A stretch of 58,465 bases of DNA, counting the filler, from Basidioascus undulatus (Eukaryota), in assembly GCA_000826855.1 (NCBI GenBank). It is 7 parts of 7 records of this genome, joined end to end, with 100 filler letters (N's around TTAATTAATTAA, not from the genome) between each part and the next. Parts side by side here need not be neighbours in the genome. Positions count along the whole stretch, not along the records: positions 50,226 to 58,465 come from JTLS01001417.1; 6 more parts are not named here. One strand, given 5' to 3'. The notes under the pieces were generated by a model, which searched no databases, was not told the DNA's origin, and saw only the letters and a program-made list of their open reading frames with translations. Of the stretch, positions 8,303-52,903 are shown in pieces. The first letter of the stretch is position 1, and the number at the start of each line of letters is the position of its first letter. The position numbers and the translations under genes were made by a program.

Positions 8303-8402
8303 NNNNNNNNNNNNNNNNNNNNNNNNNNNNNNNNNNNNNNNNNNNNTTAATTAATTAANNNNNNNNNNNNNNNNNNNNNNNNNNNNNNNNNNNNNNNNNN
8401 NN
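8303..8402. other. Artificial contig spacer
   Basis: N44-TTAATTAATTAA-N44, giving stops in all six frames. Confidence 0.99.
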
Positions 8403-13900: not shown

Positions 13901-15767
13901 AGCGACGCGGAGGCCTCGGGGGATGCGTCTGCTGTAGGCTTCCGCTGCGCCTGGTCCTTGAGGAACGTCGCGAACGCGGTGTAGAGGTCGCCCTCGTCCA
14001 GCACGTCCTGTATGCCGCCGCCGTACTGGAGCCAGAAGCGCAGCGCAGAGGTGACACCGAGCCGCAGGCGGGTGACTTGCTCCCAGTCGACCTCGTCGTC
14101 GTCCAGAATGACGGGCGTAGCCGACCATGACGGGAACTGGTTCTCCGAGGCGGGATGGGCTGAGTCGACGAGCTCCTTCGACGCGTGCGGCGCACTGTCG
14201 AAGCGTTTGCGCAGCAGCTGTCCCAGACGCTAGATCAGCACACGCGATGCGGAACAGATGCTAGTCTTCTCCGGCGCACCTCGAACAGGACTTGCGGCGC
14301 GCAGAAGCTGCGATAGGTCGCGAAGAAGACGTCCGCGTACTCGTTGAGGTCCATCGTGAGCCGGATCTTCTTCGCAGTCAAGATCGGCAGGCCCGTGTCG
14401 TCCGTCCCGCGCACGCTGAGGTCCTCGACGCCGAGGACGAGGACGTCGACGAGCCTGTCGAGCGTGCCAGACTTGACGAAGACCTTGAGCGGCGCCTCCG
14501 TCTGAAGCGAGAGGGTGTCCGAGCCCGCGAGCGAGTTGCGGACGGAGCCCGTGCCCGCCGCGGACGACGCGGGGAGGCTGCTCCGGCGCGGGGCGGCCAT
14601 GAGCGATGCGCGGACGCGCGGGTGGACGTCGAGCGCGGGGCTGGCGCTTCCGGGGAAGCCGGTGAGCGTCGACACGCTCGTGCGACGTGAGCCGGGGCGC
14701 GAGTCGATCAGACTGCTGCGGCGCGAGGCCGTGGGCGAGTCGCCCTTGGTCGAGGTGAACGTGGGCTCGCTGAGCGCCTTGAGCACGAGCTCCCCGTCCG
14801 TCACGCGGAAGAGCGTCTCGCCCACGCTGGACATCTCGCGCATCGAGCCGACGAATGCTTCGCGCCGGTGCAGCATGCTCGAAATGCCGTCCGCGCCTCC
14901 CGCGGCGCTTCCCGCGGCTCGGGTCGGGCGCCCGAGGTCGACGCTGTTCCGGCGAGCGCGCGACGGGGAAGACTGAGTCCGGACGAGCTGCGCGGTGGAT
15001 TGCGCCGCGGACGGGTGGGCGAGCGCAGTGAGGTTCTGCGAGCTGAGGTCCTTGCGGCTGGATGCGAGGCTCTCCTTGGCGGATTCGAGGATCTTGTAGC
15101 GGTCGACAAGCGAGATGTATGGGAGAGGCGCGGGGAAGAGGAGAGGGACGAGCGGGTTGACAGAGGACGGGTGCGCGGTGGAGGGGGGCTTGGCGTCGGC
15201 GAGCGTGTTGCCGAGCAGGCGGGGCTCGCAGACGAGCGAAGGCGCAAGGAAGAGGGAGATCCTGTTGATCCCACGAAGATAAGCATTCAACCGCATCGAG
15301 AATGGGCGTAACAGACAAATGGAACGTACTGAGGCATCTGAGGCGTAGGCAACCCGCACATGTGCTGGAAGAACGCCGCAAACTCGGGCAAGACAGCCTG
15401 CGCCTGGGGGCCGTCCTTCTCCTGCGCCTTGCGGGCCTCCTCTGCAACGCCCGCCGCCCTGGCCGCCGCGTCCCTCACATCCCAGCACGGACCCAACGCG
15501 ACCGCGTTCGCGGGGAGCCCCTCCTGCGCCGCGGCGGGCGGGGCGGACGCGCGCTTCCTCGCGTTGTGGATGTCGTCGATGACGCTGCCGAGGTACGGCA
15601 CGGGGCTGGCCACCTTGCCGGACTTGACCTTGCTGCTGGGGACCAGGACGACGCCCTCTACCCGGGCGTTCTCGACGTCCGTCACGCCCACGTCCGCCAG
15701 CGTGCGCGCCCACCCTTCGAGGAGGGCAAAGTCCTCCCGCCCGATGCGCTTCCATGTGCGCGTGAGG
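10972..15767 (-). CDS. BEM2-like RasGEF / PH / RhoGAP protein (multi-exon, 5' truncated at chimeric junction)
   Basis: RasGEF motifs (ARLTRTWKRI, VPYLG, VKSGTLDRLVDVL, FFATYRSF, LISFDKRR), PH-like (TFQIMTEDGGYYLLQASTFDDAREWIASI) and RhoGAP (GIYRLSG, DIHVVTGALKLWLRELREPLIP, NLAIVFGPTLL); stop at 10972. Confidence 0.88.
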
Positions 15768-16596
15768 CGCGCGGCAAGGGATGCATGATGACGGTGTTGG
15801 GTTCGCAATATTGCGTGTAGATGGATTGGTTTAATCGAAAGCGACCCCGGTATAGGTCCGCTTCTTCCTTGCTCGCAAAACGCTCTTCCTGAATACGTGT
15901 TGAGTATGCGATATCAATGTTGGTAATACTCGCAGGAAGATCATCAGTCACCATGACTTTATGACCGACCTTGCGCAGCTCTTCAATAATGTAGTCTGGC
16001 ATCGCTAATTCTTTTGGCGAAACCAGGGTGACGGTGATGTTATTAAAAATGCACAGCAGCTTGCAGAGCGAGTGAACCGTACGGCCGTGTTTTAAATCGC
16101 CAATCATGGCGATGCGCAGGCCGTCAATGTCGCGCCCTTTGGAGCGCAGTTCTTTGCGGATGGTGTAGAGATCAAGCAAGGCTTGGGTGGGGTGCTCATT
16201 AGAACCATCACCACCATTAATAACAGGAACGCGACTGCCTTCGGCAAACTCGGCGACGGACCCGGTTTGCGGGTGGCGCATACAAATCACATCGCTGTAA
16301 CCGGAAAGAACACGCGCTGTGTCAAACAATGATTCACCTTTCGTTAAAGATGAACTTTCAAAGCCAGTCGTCTCACGTACATTTCCGCCTAACAAATTAA
16401 AGGCAGCGCCGAAGCTGACACGGGTGCGGGTGCTGGGCTCAAAAAACATGTTACCAAGGATGGCCCCTTCAAGGACGCGCGTCACTTTGCGCCGTAACGC
16501 ATAAGGCTCCATGGTATCGGCAACATCAAAAATACGCTGAATGTCAGCGCGCTCGAATTGGGTGATGGAGAGAATATGGGCACCAGTGAAATTCAC
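15768..16596 (-). CDS. pyrB: Bacterial aspartate carbamoyltransferase catalytic subunit, 3' truncated
   Basis: Intronless, lower GC; FFEPSTRTRVSF, KGESLFDT, MRHP, NGGDGSNEHPTQALLDLYTI, GDLKHGRTVHSL, TRIQEER, IMHPLPR. GTG start at 16596 with a Shine-Dalgarno site; homology stops right after HPLPR. Confidence 0.95.
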
Positions 16597-16603
16597 AGGA
16601 GAA

Positions 16604-16608
16604 TCCTT
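16604..16608 (-). promoter_or_regulatory. Shine-Dalgarno-like ribosome binding site for pyrB
   Basis: AAGGA lies 7 nt upstream of the GTG at 16596. Confidence 0.7.
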
Positions 16609-16685
16609 AGCGGGAGGCCGCTGGTTGGGTAGCAGGAAATCGGCGGCCATTTTAGCGATAGATGCTGCGTATACCAACGGCGCAC

Positions 16686-16785
16686 NNNNNNNNNNNNNNN
16701 NNNNNNNNNNNNNNNNNNNNNNNNNNNNNTTAATTAATTAANNNNNNNNNNNNNNNNNNNNNNNNNNNNNNNNNNNNNNNNNNNN
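16686..16785. other. Artificial contig spacer
   Basis: N44-TTAATTAATTAA-N44. Confidence 0.99.
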
Positions 16786-21476: not shown

Positions 21477-22605
21477 TCAATCCATATACTCCCTCCTCCC
21501 CGCCCCAATCTCCAGATCTGAACCGACCTCCGCCTTGCCCATGCCCCCCTGGCCCTTTCCATCCCTCCAATCCGGCACGCCCTCCAGCCCCAGCTCATTG
21601 CGCATCTCCCCGAGATCCCGCTCCCACTCGCGCTCCCAGTAGATCCCCAGCAGGGGCTTGCAGCGCGCACCCTGGCGGAGCGCCCATGGCGCGAGGTCCT
21701 GCACGAGCGCGCGCCGCTGTGCGGGCTTGGTCAGCCGCAGGGGACCGAAGGCGGCTGAGAGGCCGGCGACGGGGGTGCGGAAGTGGGCGAACTCTGGGCA
21801 TAGGGGCGAGGTCATGAGGGATTGCCGAAGAGGGGGAGGGGAAGAAAAAGAATGGAAGAAGGGGAGACAGGGGAGACAGGGGAGACAGGGCTCACCGAAG
21901 TACTTAACTACCAGCTCCGAGAGGATGTCTACCCGCTGGCCGAGGAGGAGGTGGTACAGGTCGTGGCTCTCCCTGTACCTCTGCACAACGTATGCCAGCT
22001 CCTCGTCATCCACATAGTGCACCTGTCCCTCCGCGCCCTCGTCAGCTACCTCCCCTTCTCGCCTTCCTCTCGCAGACACACCGGATCCCGCGTGTCCGGG
22101 CTCACTCCACACCGCTCCAACCACCCTGCGTATTCCCTCCCCAGCGTCCCGCGCGGGAGCGCGCGCAGCTCGCTCAGCGCGACGGACGACGTCGAGATGC
22201 GCGGACGGTCGTGGAGGATTGCGCGACCTGATGGTGAATCGACCATCTGTGCGCGGAGCGAACAGAGGAGCGAGATCGGCGTGGATGTTTCGGTTAGGGC
22301 GGCGAGCATGTCTAGAGAGGAAGGGCATTAGAGAAGGGGGAAAGAGGGGAAGAGGAAGACCCACCGTGCCGGTAGGGATCGACAAGCGACACGACCGCTG
22401 AGCCCGCGGCGAGGAACGCGTTTTGGAGCGGTCCTACGGGCCAGTGCCCTATGTTACAATCCCGTTTCCATCCGTAAGTGCGAGCCCGTGATGGGAAGGA
22501 GATGGGGAGATGCGCTGCCCACGCACCGGGGTACGCAGGCGCGAGAGTCGAGCGCGCTCGGGTCGCGCCTAGCTGGCCGAGGGAGGAGGAGAGGCGAAGG
22601 GGCAT
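21477..22605 (-). CDS. COQ4: Ubiquinone biosynthesis protein Coq4 (multi-exon)
   Basis: Mitochondrial presequence, PAYPG|HWP, DPYRH|DMLAALTE, GRAILHDRPRI, LRALPRGTLGREY, VSPDTRDP|VHYVDDEELAYVVQRYRESHDLYH (HDxxH), ELVVKYF|EFAH, LLGIYWE. Confidence 0.96.
21861..21890. repeat. 9-bp tandem repeat (GGGAGACAG)x3 in a COQ4 intron
   Basis: Read directly from the sequence. Confidence 0.8.
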
Positions 22606-25061: not shown

Positions 25062-25161
25062 NNNNNNNNNNNNNNNNNNNNNNNNNNNNNNNNNNNNNNN
25101 NNNNNTTAATTAATTAANNNNNNNNNNNNNNNNNNNNNNNNNNNNNNNNNNNNNNNNNNNN
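25062..25161. other. Artificial contig spacer
   Basis: N44-TTAATTAATTAA-N44. Confidence 0.99.
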
Positions 25162-33424: not shown

Positions 33425-33524
33425 NNNNNNNNNNNNNNNNNNNNNNNNNNNNNNNNNNNNNNNNNNNNTTAATTAATTAANNNNNNNNNNNNNNNNNNNN
33501 NNNNNNNNNNNNNNNNNNNNNNNN
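33425..33524. other. Artificial contig spacer
   Basis: N44-TTAATTAATTAA-N44. Confidence 0.99.
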
Positions 33525-41783: not shown

Positions 41784-41883
41784 NNNNNNNNNNNNNNNNN
41801 NNNNNNNNNNNNNNNNNNNNNNNNNNNTTAATTAATTAANNNNNNNNNNNNNNNNNNNNNNNNNNNNNNNNNNNNNNNNNNNN
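41784..41883. other. Artificial contig spacer
   Basis: N44-TTAATTAATTAA-N44. Confidence 0.99.
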
Positions 41884-50125: not shown

Positions 50126-50225
50126 NNNNNNNNNNNNNNNNNNNNNNNNNNNNNNNNNNNNNNNNNNNNTTAATTAATTAANNNNNNNNNNNNNNNNNNN
50201 NNNNNNNNNNNNNNNNNNNNNNNNN
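50126..50225. other. Artificial contig spacer
   Basis: N44-TTAATTAATTAA-N44. Confidence 0.99.
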
Positions 50226-50681: not shown

Positions 50682-51478
50682 TGATATGGCGCAGCGCTTC
50701 ACACCAAGGGCGGGGTCTGGTACATAGCAAAAGAAAGGGGAACGGCGTTGGTGAGTACCCAGCAGTCAGCTCTTTCGGAGTGGGATACTTATTTTAAGGT
50801 GGAAAAAATCCACCGCAGCACATCCTGACTCTGAAGCCCTACTCAAACGGCAGCTGCAACGATGGTGAAAAGGGCGTTCATCATTCAGGCCGGCGAGTAT
50901 GCTTTCATGCTCCCATCGTTCTTGAGTCTTTCGGGGCCAGGCTGGGTTGTTTCCTGGGATGTCTGGAGCAATAGGAGAAGATAAAGAGATGATAAAGTCT
51001 TGCAAATATGCAAGTCTGTAGCAGTGGGGTCTGGTCACTGCGCCAGGTCATCAGCAAGTGGGCTGCCGGTCTGAAGAGTGATGGGTGGCTGTCTGACATC
51101 TGTGACTATGCGCCCCAGATACCATACAGCACCGAGTGCAGGTTACACGCGGCTGGAAGTGAAGAGCGCTCCATCAAGGGGGACTGAAACCCCACAGCAG
51201 GCCACCTTCTCGCTTCCGATTTGAACGACATCATGTAACCATTCAAGATATCTCAGCTTCAACGCGACTCAAGCTCGCTCTTTCCGCTTTGCTTCGGCGA
51301 TGTATGCCGTCCTTTGGACTTGATGTACCAGTAAAAGTACATACACATATCAGGAAGATTTTACTTCTACAAGCTCCAAGCAAGACTGTCGTGGCAAAAC
51401 ACAAGGCGAATCCCACAGCTGCCGTCTCCCTACGCACGGCCTCATCCCTCCAGCTGCTCCCCATAGCATCACACAAGC

Positions 51479-51483
51479 AAAAA
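51479..51483 (-). terminator. RNA polymerase III terminator (T5)
   Basis: TTTTT on the minus strand, 5 nt after tRNA position 37. Confidence 0.7.
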
Positions 51484-51488
51484 GACAG

Positions 51489-51572
51489 TACGAGTGGCGC
51501 GCTCTACCACTGAGCTAAGGGGGCATCTGAAATGAATGCCCTCTGGCTGGATTGAACAACCGACCTCACCAT
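51489..51572 (-). tRNA. tRNA-Thr(CGU) with halves in permuted order (3' half 51572-51537, spacer, 5' half 51524-51489)
   Basis: 5' half GCCCCCT TA GCTC AGTGGTA GAGC G CGCCA CT CGT A; 3' half A TGGTG AGGTC GGTTG TTCAATC CAGCC AGAGGGC A. Joined, they give a 72-nt cloverleaf with U8, A14, G15:C48, G18G19, U33, G53-UUC-A58-C61 and one C5.A68 mismatch. Confidence 0.85.
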
Positions 51573-51579
51573 TTCGCTG

Positions 51580-51590
51580 CCGAACGACCA
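51580..51590 (-). promoter_or_regulatory. A-box-like element in the leader of the permuted tRNA
   Basis: TGGTCGTTCGG fits TRGYNNANNGG except at the central A, and lies upstream of the B box GTTCAATCC (51557-51549). Confidence 0.5.
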
Positions 51591-52903
51591 AGAAGTGGCT
51601 GCCGGTGACAACAGATGAACACATTCTGTGAAGGCCGCGTGCACAGATACAGCAAAGTGGCACATCGCATCCTATTTTCCAGGGGACGGGAAAGTTTATA
51701 TTATATGTTCACAAAGAGCTGCTGTCTCAGCGAAATGTACGACAAACAGCCAAACATGGCCACGGAGCAGTGGCGCACATGCCACTTGGCCCAGTTCTTT
51801 AAGGACGCTTTCACTCCGTATCACGGCAGTGACTTGATGATAGACTCTAGTACAAATGACTGGTCCAACGCAACCTGACACTCCAAGAGCAGAGCTCGAC
51901 TGACTCCCGCATGAGCATATATAGCACTTCATGAGAAATAACACCATACTTACCCGTGTACAAAAAATCTATAATGAATAAGCTTTCTTCAGCTAGGCAT
52001 GGGTGGGAGGTGTATTATAGAAAGGCATTGGCATCAAGCAAAATCTGGGCTCAAAGGGGAGCAGGGCTGGCTTCGCGGCCCAGAAATTGTTAGATCCTTC
52101 GGCGAATGGATGTGCAACGACTGGAGGAGAAAAATAACAGGTTTAAAGGCCAACAAAAGGACTTTTGGTTCTACTGCGCCTTCTTCAGTGGGCACAGGTC
52201 ACACAGCGACAGGCAGCCTACAGCCAAGCAGGGCTTTCAGCGGATGGCCATGTCAAGACACCACCCAATCCCACGCGAAGGGTATCTAACCGCCCGAATA
52301 TTCGGAAGAGCCCCTGCTGAGGAAGAACAGGAAGGTAATCCGGTGACAGCTTTGTTTGCAGCCGCACTGACCTTGTGGCGTGGCCGCATTCAGTTTGCTT
52401 CAGGGCGAAATAAGGAGCAGCAAATGTTATCTCAGGCTACTCAAAGTTGTGAGCGAGTGTTGATATGCTCAGTTACGAATACAGCGAGGGGACGCTGCTC
52501 GGAGAGAGTGCGCGACAGCGAGTATCCCAAGATGTGTTTCCAAGCAAATTTAAAAGCACGTCTGACCCGAGATCAAGCCAACCTGCCACACAGTGCTTGT
52601 CAGACCCGGGACCATCACTTATTTGAGCTTTGGGTATTATTTAATAAAGACCAGAAGGAAAACCTTGGTGTCCGGTCTTCAGGGCCACGGCGGCCGTAGC
52701 CTGACATCTCCATCGCTAGGTTCCTCCGCTCAACGCCAGCGCTCGAGTCTTCCGCTGTCACTATTACAGTTTCCCTCAAAGAGGACGATGATAGCCTGTT
52801 ATCCCCTGAAGACGAAGTAAAGGGCAGCTTGGGAGCGCACCAGCGGGCTCTTGAAGGCCGTACACACTTTGGCCTTTGGCCCGCGTGCATACGGTCCTCA
52901 GCA

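Follow-up and report, generated by a model that had tools for sequence, protein, structure and literature searches.

Can a tRNA gene whose two halves stand in reversed order exist in a fungal nuclear genome, and is such a gene likely to work? The question is raised by a short segment on the minus strand of the 58,465-nt stretch of DNA analysed here (the window), in which the 3' half of a tRNA-Thr(CGU) precedes the 5' half. The window is made up of seven contigs, of 8,302 down to 8,240 nt, joined by linkers of the form N44-TTAATTAATTAA-N44; it is a pseudomolecule, so that linkage between its pieces is without meaning. When the segment 51572-51479 is read base by base on the minus strand, the 3' half is followed by a 12-nt spacer, the 5' half, the pentanucleotide CTGTC and a run of five T residues (Table 1). 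This is the layout that had been described from the sequence alone (the sequence-only reading), and it proved exact to the base. The 3' half contains the 3' strand of the anticodon stem (UGGUG), the variable loop (AGGUC) and the T arm (GGUUG-UUCAAUC-CAGCC), which includes the B box, and ends with the 3' strand of the acceptor stem (AGAGGGC) and the discriminator A73. The 5' half consists of the acceptor strand GCCCCCU, the D arm with the A box, the 5' strand of the anticodon stem (CGCCA) and the loop CUCGUA with the anticodon CGT. No CCA is encoded in the window unit. The permuted genomic arrangement is almost certainly real.

Table 1. Parts of the permuted tRNA-Thr(CGU) unit and linkers between the contigs, in window coordinates.
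Feature	Position	Strand	Description and basis
Leader -9..-5, GGCAG	51577..51581	-	5' strand of the leader-trailer helix; predicted to pair with trailer CUGUC (MFE and centroid structures)
Leader -4..-1, CGAA	51573..51576	-	Intron-like 3' end; predicted from the MFE structure
tRNA-Thr(CGU) 3' half, positions 38-73	51537..51572	-	ATGGTG...GGGCA; sequence, exon identity, covariance-model match
Spacer, 12 nt, TTCATTTCAGAT	51525..51536	-	Joins position 73 to position 1; longest T run T3, so without T4
tRNA-Thr(CGU) 5' half, positions 1-37	51489..51524	-	GCCCCC...CTCGTA; sequence, exon identity, covariance-model match
Trailer +1..+5, CTGTC	51484..51488	-	Intron-like 5' start; 3' strand of the predicted leader-trailer helix
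T5 run	51479..51483	-	Likely RNA polymerase III terminator; sequence, T runs in other copies
Linkers N44-TTAATTAATTAA-N44	8303-8402, 16686-16785, 25062-25161, 33425-33524, 41784-41883, 50126-50225		

For an assessment of tRNA identity, the halves were joined by their coordinates in a script and scored with ARAGORN, which names the 72-nt product tRNA-Thr(cgt). The joined molecule has the anticodon stem CGCCA/UGGUG and the T stem GGUUG/CAGCC, six of seven acceptor pairs with a mismatch C5:A68 in the window copy, and the residues G1:C72, C2:G71, U8, G18G19, U33 and U54U55C56. The complete cloverleaf that had been proposed, with its stems, its acceptor of six out of seven pairs and its threonine identity pairs, is thus upheld by ARAGORN on the joined halves. 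As written, the window yields no tRNA at all, neither with ARAGORN without and with introns nor with Rfam at gathering thresholds, and the expectation that standard tRNA finders would miss the locus was borne out for these two tools. The weak Rfam tRNA match that exists (17.3 bits) covers the 5' half only. Membership in the Rfam family YrlA (RF02553) was rejected, since its gathering score is 69 and the match, a weak one that arises from topology only, reaches 15.4 bits: the tRNA-like domain of YrlA shares the rotated topology of T arm, capped acceptor stem and D arm, but is bacterial or phage-borne, lacks an anticodon arm and takes no part in decoding.

Of the 16 conventional fungal-type tRNA-Thr(CGU) loci introduced below, 11 were used to build a covariance model after five near-duplicates had been set aside. 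Applied to the 58 kb window, the model recognizes the two halves separately: the 5' half scores 45.7 bits (E 1.4e-8), the 3' half 35.0 bits (E 4.5e-6), and the next match reaches only 13.0 bits (E 0.6). The core of each half occurs once in the window at up to three mismatches, with chance expectations of 0.01 and 0.00. ARAGORN was also run in a rotation-aware manner on 17,093 rotated pieces covering all seven contigs; 21 of 23 joint-spanning matches lay at the permuted locus, and no second permuted tRNA was detected in the window. The remaining two, singletons in contig 2 (14633 and 14783), which is GC-rich, were taken as noise. When the same scan was applied as a control to the 16 conventional loci (20,165 pieces), all 31 joint-spanning matches fell on the conventional genes themselves.

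These conventional loci (L001-L016) came from a metagenome scan in which the 3' end of the 5' half had to precede a base other than A. In every one of them, the 5' and 3' exons are separated at 37/38 by an intron of 7-31 nt, and a T run comes after the 3' exon. The halves of the window unit meet precisely at this intron site, as had been stated from the sequence. Eleven of the 16 loci, among them L001 and L009, have 5' exons that match the 5' half at 35 of 36 positions; in L001 and L009 the 3' exon agrees equally well (35/36) with the 3' half. The sole two differences from these two loci concern the mutually pairing positions 5 and 68, which read G5:C68 there and C5:A68 here. On the basis of these identities and of the 37/38 split, the halves are best understood as intact exon copies of an intron-containing gene family, cut at the intron site. 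The ends of the conventional introns also resemble the leader and trailer of the window unit: the 3' end finishes with A, and the G at position -3 of the leader is present in ten of the 16 introns. In contrast to the conventional loci, where the 5' exon precedes the 3' exon, the intron is closed and the terminator follows the 3' exon, the window unit has a swapped exon order and an open-ended 'intron'. The permuted layout, searched for in the metagenomes as T arm, N{15,45} and D arm, gave no matches. Run with introns, ARAGORN reports a tRNA in all 16 conventional loci and labels ten of them Thr(cgt); the other six are labelled Lys, Ala, Stop, Ser or Glu because the intron is placed differently. 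Conventional tRNA-Thr(CGU) genes may be present in the rest of the genome.

In principle, the unusual order of the halves could be an assembly artefact or a chimera. The source assembly exists in fragments of ~8 kb, and at least one of its contigs ends in an 856-nt Cellvibrio-like stretch. Contigs from read sets were compared with the locus; such contigs attest the presence and not the absence of a sequence. Two of the sets, X1 (2014) and X2 (2025), are genome-sized and come from different studies, and the third, X3, is a soil metagenome that contains parts of the locus. X1 has a contig of 88 nt that equals 51489-51576 and runs through half, spacer and half; in the overlaps with it, the two flanking contigs show 0 and 1 differences. 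The same order is found within two other long contigs in both X1 and X2, and an independent 151-nt contig from X3 covers 51495-51645 with six differences, none of which is listed in the spacer and two of which lie in the upstream flank. As contigs from all three sets carry the same order, it is not an assembly artefact but a design that is repeated in the genome, and we regard a chimera as scarcely conceivable. Reads spanning 51470-51600 had been named as a check; contigs spanning the spacer are available from X1 and X3, but the exact spacer of the window unit is absent among the X2 contigs listed. Among the latter, the exact flanks are bridged only by two 60-nt variants (51502-51565), in each of which there are five substitutions and the spacer is four bases shorter. 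The copies may have undergone gene conversion, the strains may differ, or the contigs may have been simplified. As a separate observation, position 52015 is G in X1 and X2 and T in the window assembly.

How often the unit occurs can be judged from sequencing depth. The 88-nt contig of X1 has a depth of 45.6, compared with 15.8 and 18.9 for its flanking contigs, which indicates that the exact unit is present about three times in the genome. Summed over the spacer, depth amounts to 79.3-95.3 versus about 16-19 in X1 and to 195.6-232.8 versus about 43 in X2, corresponding to about five to six genome-equivalents in both runs. At least two diverged copies sit within other long contigs in X1 and X2 alike. 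In diverged copy 1, the whole unit lies inside a contig of 12,390 nt (28,968 nt in X2) and differs by nine substitutions without gaps; in diverged copy 2, it lies inside a contig of 10,859 nt (10,857 nt in X2) and differs by eight substitutions and four gaps.

A copy number of this order would also be compatible with a short dispersed repeat or mobile element that carries a tRNA-like module rearranged by chance. The segment common to the copies, however, measures just ~88-98 nt and ends at the boundaries of the tRNA halves and of the predicted helix, neither a target-site duplication nor a terminal repeat was seen, and the constraint on the sequence tracks the cloverleaf. The order of B box and then A box is also unlike that in tRNA-derived SINEs. 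We consider such an element very improbable. The similarity between copies stops at 51581 in one contig of X1 and three of X2, and at 51484/51485 in two contigs per run. These are the ends of the predicted leader-trailer helix, which fits a conserved pre-tRNA unit. Some copies are alike beyond the unit, in the flank segments 51457-51505 and 51553-51591.

The listed differences among the copies fall into the spacer and onto the acceptor positions 51519-51521 and 51540-51543; the listing takes in changes with a share of at least 10% of the summed depth, so that one to two changes per copy are unplaced and could include the anticodon. The spacer is the most variable part. Five of its 12 positions are changed in diverged copy 1 as opposed to at most four of 76 elsewhere (Fisher p 0.0019), and seven of 12 in diverged copy 2 as opposed to five of 77 elsewhere (Fisher p 7e-5). 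The acceptor stem of diverged copy 2, as read from the listed changes, is GCCTCTT/AAGAGGC with seven standard pairs out of seven; compared with the conventional GCCCGCT/AGCGGGC, both members of the pairs 4:69, 5:68 and 6:67 have been replaced. Diverged copy 1 has G5:T68, a pair that is also found in conventional genes such as L003-L005.

This pattern bears on the main rival to a working gene family, namely that we are dealing with a dead relic: tandem intron-containing tRNA-Thr genes, or a single rearranged one, would have decayed, and pseudogene pieces comprising the inner halves would have been spread by segmental duplication. The C5:A68 mismatch of the window copy, the flank segments that some copies have in common, a box order that is wrong for TFIIIC and an upstream region in which no recognisable promoter was found can all be read in this way. 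Neutral decay, however, would not be expected to spare precisely the inner 72 nt, to leave halves that match functional-type exons at 35 of 36 positions when paralogous spacers differ at 5-7 of 12, or to compensate acceptor changes on both sides as in one of the copies. The outer halves are moreover undetectable above background. When the flanks of the window copy were aligned with the missing halves and compared with 606 background pieces, the 5' half scored 12 against the 100 nt upstream, a value matched by 85% of the background pieces, and the 3' half scored 14 against the downstream flank, matched by 66%. Alignments of the covariance model with the flanks are therefore to be regarded as forced and not as evidence, and the earlier remark that no partner halves were found in the flanks agrees with these scores. 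Among the flanks of other copies that are listed, a listing that takes in neither 14 loose ends nor 59 pieces, none runs on into a conventional partner half. To judge from these comparisons, the preserved part of the window copy is the inner 72 nt only. Gene conversion from conventional genes could also have kept the halves intact. On balance, we hold a dead relic to be unlikely.

The predicted fold provides a further line of argument for a permuted gene. Folded without constraint, the 98-nt unit from -9 to +5 (51581-51484) forms a permuted cloverleaf with an energy of -31.8 kcal/mol, the MFE and centroid structures being the same. It contains the anticodon stem, the T arm and the D arm. In the MFE structure, the ends of the spacer add three base pairs to the acceptor stem, which is closed by a 7-nt loop, and leader GGCAG and trailer CUGUC form a 5-bp helix. 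At the junction, a 2-nt bulge (U36 A37) is followed by a 3-bp helix of C-4 G-3 A-2 with G35 C34 U33 and by a 1x2 loop that contains A-1 and A38, between which the predicted 3' cut site is located. The junction is thus predicted to be a relaxed structure resembling a bulge-helix-bulge (BHB) with both cut sites unpaired, and it differs from the strict 3-4-3 BHB. The folding energy as such is unremarkable (z -1.33; 16 of 200 shuffles fold equally well or better), and for transcripts with longer leaders (107 and 187 nt) the MFE structure is not a cloverleaf (z -0.43 and -0.04).

The T5 run begins 6 nt after A37 and is the only run of at least four T residues on the gene strand in 51400-51760. Runs of at least five number nine per 8240 bp contig on both strands, and the chance of one within 10 nt is ~0.005. 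The four downstream flanks of other copies that are shown singly each have a T4 or T5 within ~20 nt of the 5' half. The sequence-only reading, which had placed a terminator behind the 5' half and none in the spacer, is corroborated on both points, and the T runs behind other copies extend it. Within 50 nt upstream of the unit there is no TATA-like element. The nearest one, TATAATATAAA at 51705-51695 on the minus strand, lies ~123-133 nt upstream of the 3' half and could be a distant Pol III element or an unrelated Pol II element; the stretch from this element to the gene is free of T4 runs. The A box of the 5' half (51517-51507) has the B box, which belongs to the 3' half, 41 nt upstream and the T5 run ~25 nt downstream. 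Fungal Pol III transcription of tRNA genes is normally TFIIIC-dependent, and an A box before the B box is normally needed. A B box ahead of the A box is described as unsuitable for TFIIIC in an account of algal permuted genes, according to which a TATA-like promoter is found within ~50 bp upstream of most permuted genes in C. merolae and is not universal in green algae (PMC3978253).

Given this arrangement, TFIIIC might use the A box only. Transcription would then start in the spacer and yield a small RNA similar to a 5' tRNA half that ends at the T5 run, and the 3' half would serve as a B-box landing pad. Such a half-tRNA gene would agree with the spacing of A box and T5, with the B box lying upstream and with the lack of a TATA element near the 3' half, but it would leave unexplained why the acceptor strands, which come from two different halves, show compensated pairing. 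The same is true for the conserved leader-trailer helix, which needs a transcript that starts upstream of the 3' half. We judge a half-tRNA gene to be very improbable.

The identity of the host can be approached via a neighbouring gene. A DBP6-like DEAD-box helicase is encoded at ~56.7-58.4 kb on the minus strand of the same contig (50226-58465), in keeping with the earlier statement that DBP6 and the tRNA unit share a contig. The helicase reading is split over several frames, which points to introns, and the best matches are DBP6-type proteins from Microbotryomycetes (Sporobolomyces, Leucosporidium, Rhodotorula, Microbotryum) with 44-50% identity over about half of the query. On account of this intron-containing gene and its best matches we take the contig to be fungal. 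The host is most likely a Pucciniomycotina-like basidiomycete with no close sequenced relative among the matches. That there is demand for a tRNA-Thr(CGU) is suggested by the largest exon of the helicase, where 10 of 21 threonine codons are ACG, more than any other.

The presence of several units, the contrast between conserved halves and diverged spacers, the compensated acceptor pairs, the T runs and the predicted fold all argue in the same direction, that of a permuted tRNA gene. We thus propose that the window unit is probably a member of a small family of type II permuted nuclear tRNA-Thr genes, split at 37/38, in a Pucciniomycotina-like basidiomycete. That the units also form a working gene family seems to us somewhat better supported than its opposite. 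The proposal that this is a fungal permuted tRNA gene has accordingly gained support from structure, copies, conservation, fold and the fungal nature of the contig, and its functional part stands with the reservation just expressed.

Permuted tRNA genes have been published from C. merolae, four Mamiellophyceae, chlorarachniophyte nucleomorphs and the archaeon Thermofilum pendens; as described by Soma (2014, PMC3978253), known examples are split at 37/38 with 5-64 nt intervening between the halves, the 5' half is followed by a T stretch, and the termini form a BHB; Table 1 of that paper lists a permuted Thr(CGT) for C. merolae. With the type II genes of Cyanidioschyzon merolae and the Mamiellophyceae (Ostreococcus, Micromonas), as far as these are set out there, the window unit shares the order of 3' half, spacer and 5' half, the junction at 37/38, the T stretch after the 5' half, a spacer without terminator, the absence of an encoded CCA and an intron-like, BHB-type junction of leader and trailer, which is here a prediction. 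Its spacer of 12 nt lies within the algal range, in which several spacers have exactly 12 nt. Unlike the algal type II genes in that description, the window unit resides in a fungal (opisthokont) host, has no TATA-like element in the 50 nt upstream, is predicted to have the relaxed junction (2-nt bulge, 3-bp helix, 1x2 loop) in place of a strict 3-4-3 BHB, and belongs to several paralogous permuted copies within one isoacceptor family. The permuted genes of T. pendens (type IV) share the circular permutation, but are reported as archaeal genes with the junction at 59/60 in the T loop, a spacer of 1-7 nt and additional introns. Among the papers listed by our search of the freely accessible literature, none reports a permuted nuclear tRNA gene from a fungus, in accordance with the sequence-only reading, which knew of none. 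The window unit would thus be a type II permuted tRNA gene in a new lineage.

The origin of such a gene can be envisaged as follows. A conventional tRNA-Thr(CGU) gene with an intron at 37/38 would have been duplicated in tandem and the outer halves would have been lost, leaving the 3' half, a spacer and the 5' half; leader and trailer would be what is left of the two ends of the old intron. This model of tandem duplication and loss (Soma 2014, PMC3978253) fits the present case because of the intron-containing relatives, the exact 37/38 split and the intron-like ends of leader and trailer.

For expression of the permuted unit, we infer by analogy how transcription, promoter use, processing order and use in translation would proceed; the pathway is modelled on that of algal permuted tRNAs (Soma 2014, PMC3978253). 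A single Pol III transcript would run from upstream of 51581 to the T5 run and comprise leader, 3' half, spacer, 5' half and trailer. Leader and trailer would pair with each other and with the anticodon and offer the BHB-like junction to the tRNA splicing endonuclease, which would cut after A37 and before A38. Sealing of A37 to A38 by tRNA ligase would give a circular intermediate, from which RNase P and tRNase Z would remove the spacer before CCA is added. In a fungus, such a pathway faces two serious difficulties, the box order discussed above and the sequence of processing events. In yeasts, the ends of tRNAs are processed before splicing takes place in the cytoplasm. Here, either the steps would have to follow one another differently, or removal of the spacer would come first and the two halves would be held together by base pairing only.

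It is possible, though in our view short of likely, that all genes of the tRNA-Thr(CGU) family of this basidiomycete are permuted and functional and that they arose independently and recently in an opisthokont. If so, a Pol III system of the TFIIIC type would have to transcribe a gene with the B box before the A box, or else use an upstream element that escapes recognition, and the fungal Sen endonuclease, Trl1 ligase, RNase P and tRNase Z would run in reversed order via a circular pre-tRNA. Permuted tRNA genes have so far been looked upon as an oddity confined to a few unicellular algae, to nucleomorphs and to a single archaeon, where they are discussed as either ancient relics or lineage-specific inventions (PMC3978253, PMC13578239). 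A multi-copy fungal family beside ordinary intron-containing relatives would show that the layout can arise recently from a canonical gene with an intron at 37/38 and that standard annotation may miss essential fungal tRNAs. It would also offer a tractable test of how Pol III promoter order and compartmentalised fungal tRNA splicing deal with a gene that is written back to front.

Some observations on other contigs of the window are added here. The end of contig 2 carries an open reading frame for an aspartate carbamoyltransferase (15685-16683, minus strand) that is 93% identical to the protein of Cellvibrio mixtus over 84% of the query. This similarity breaks off inside the contig, and the 856-nt stretch 15830-16685 has a GC content of 0.51 compared with 0.61 in the rest of contig 2. 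The contig end looks like a bacterial contaminant fragment or part of a chimeric contig. Another reading frame on the same contig (14235-15830, minus strand) has a weak RasGEF_N match of 21.4 bits, below the Pfam cut-off of 28.3, and contig 3 contains a reading frame with a Coq4 domain (21477-22433, minus strand, E 3.5e-37).
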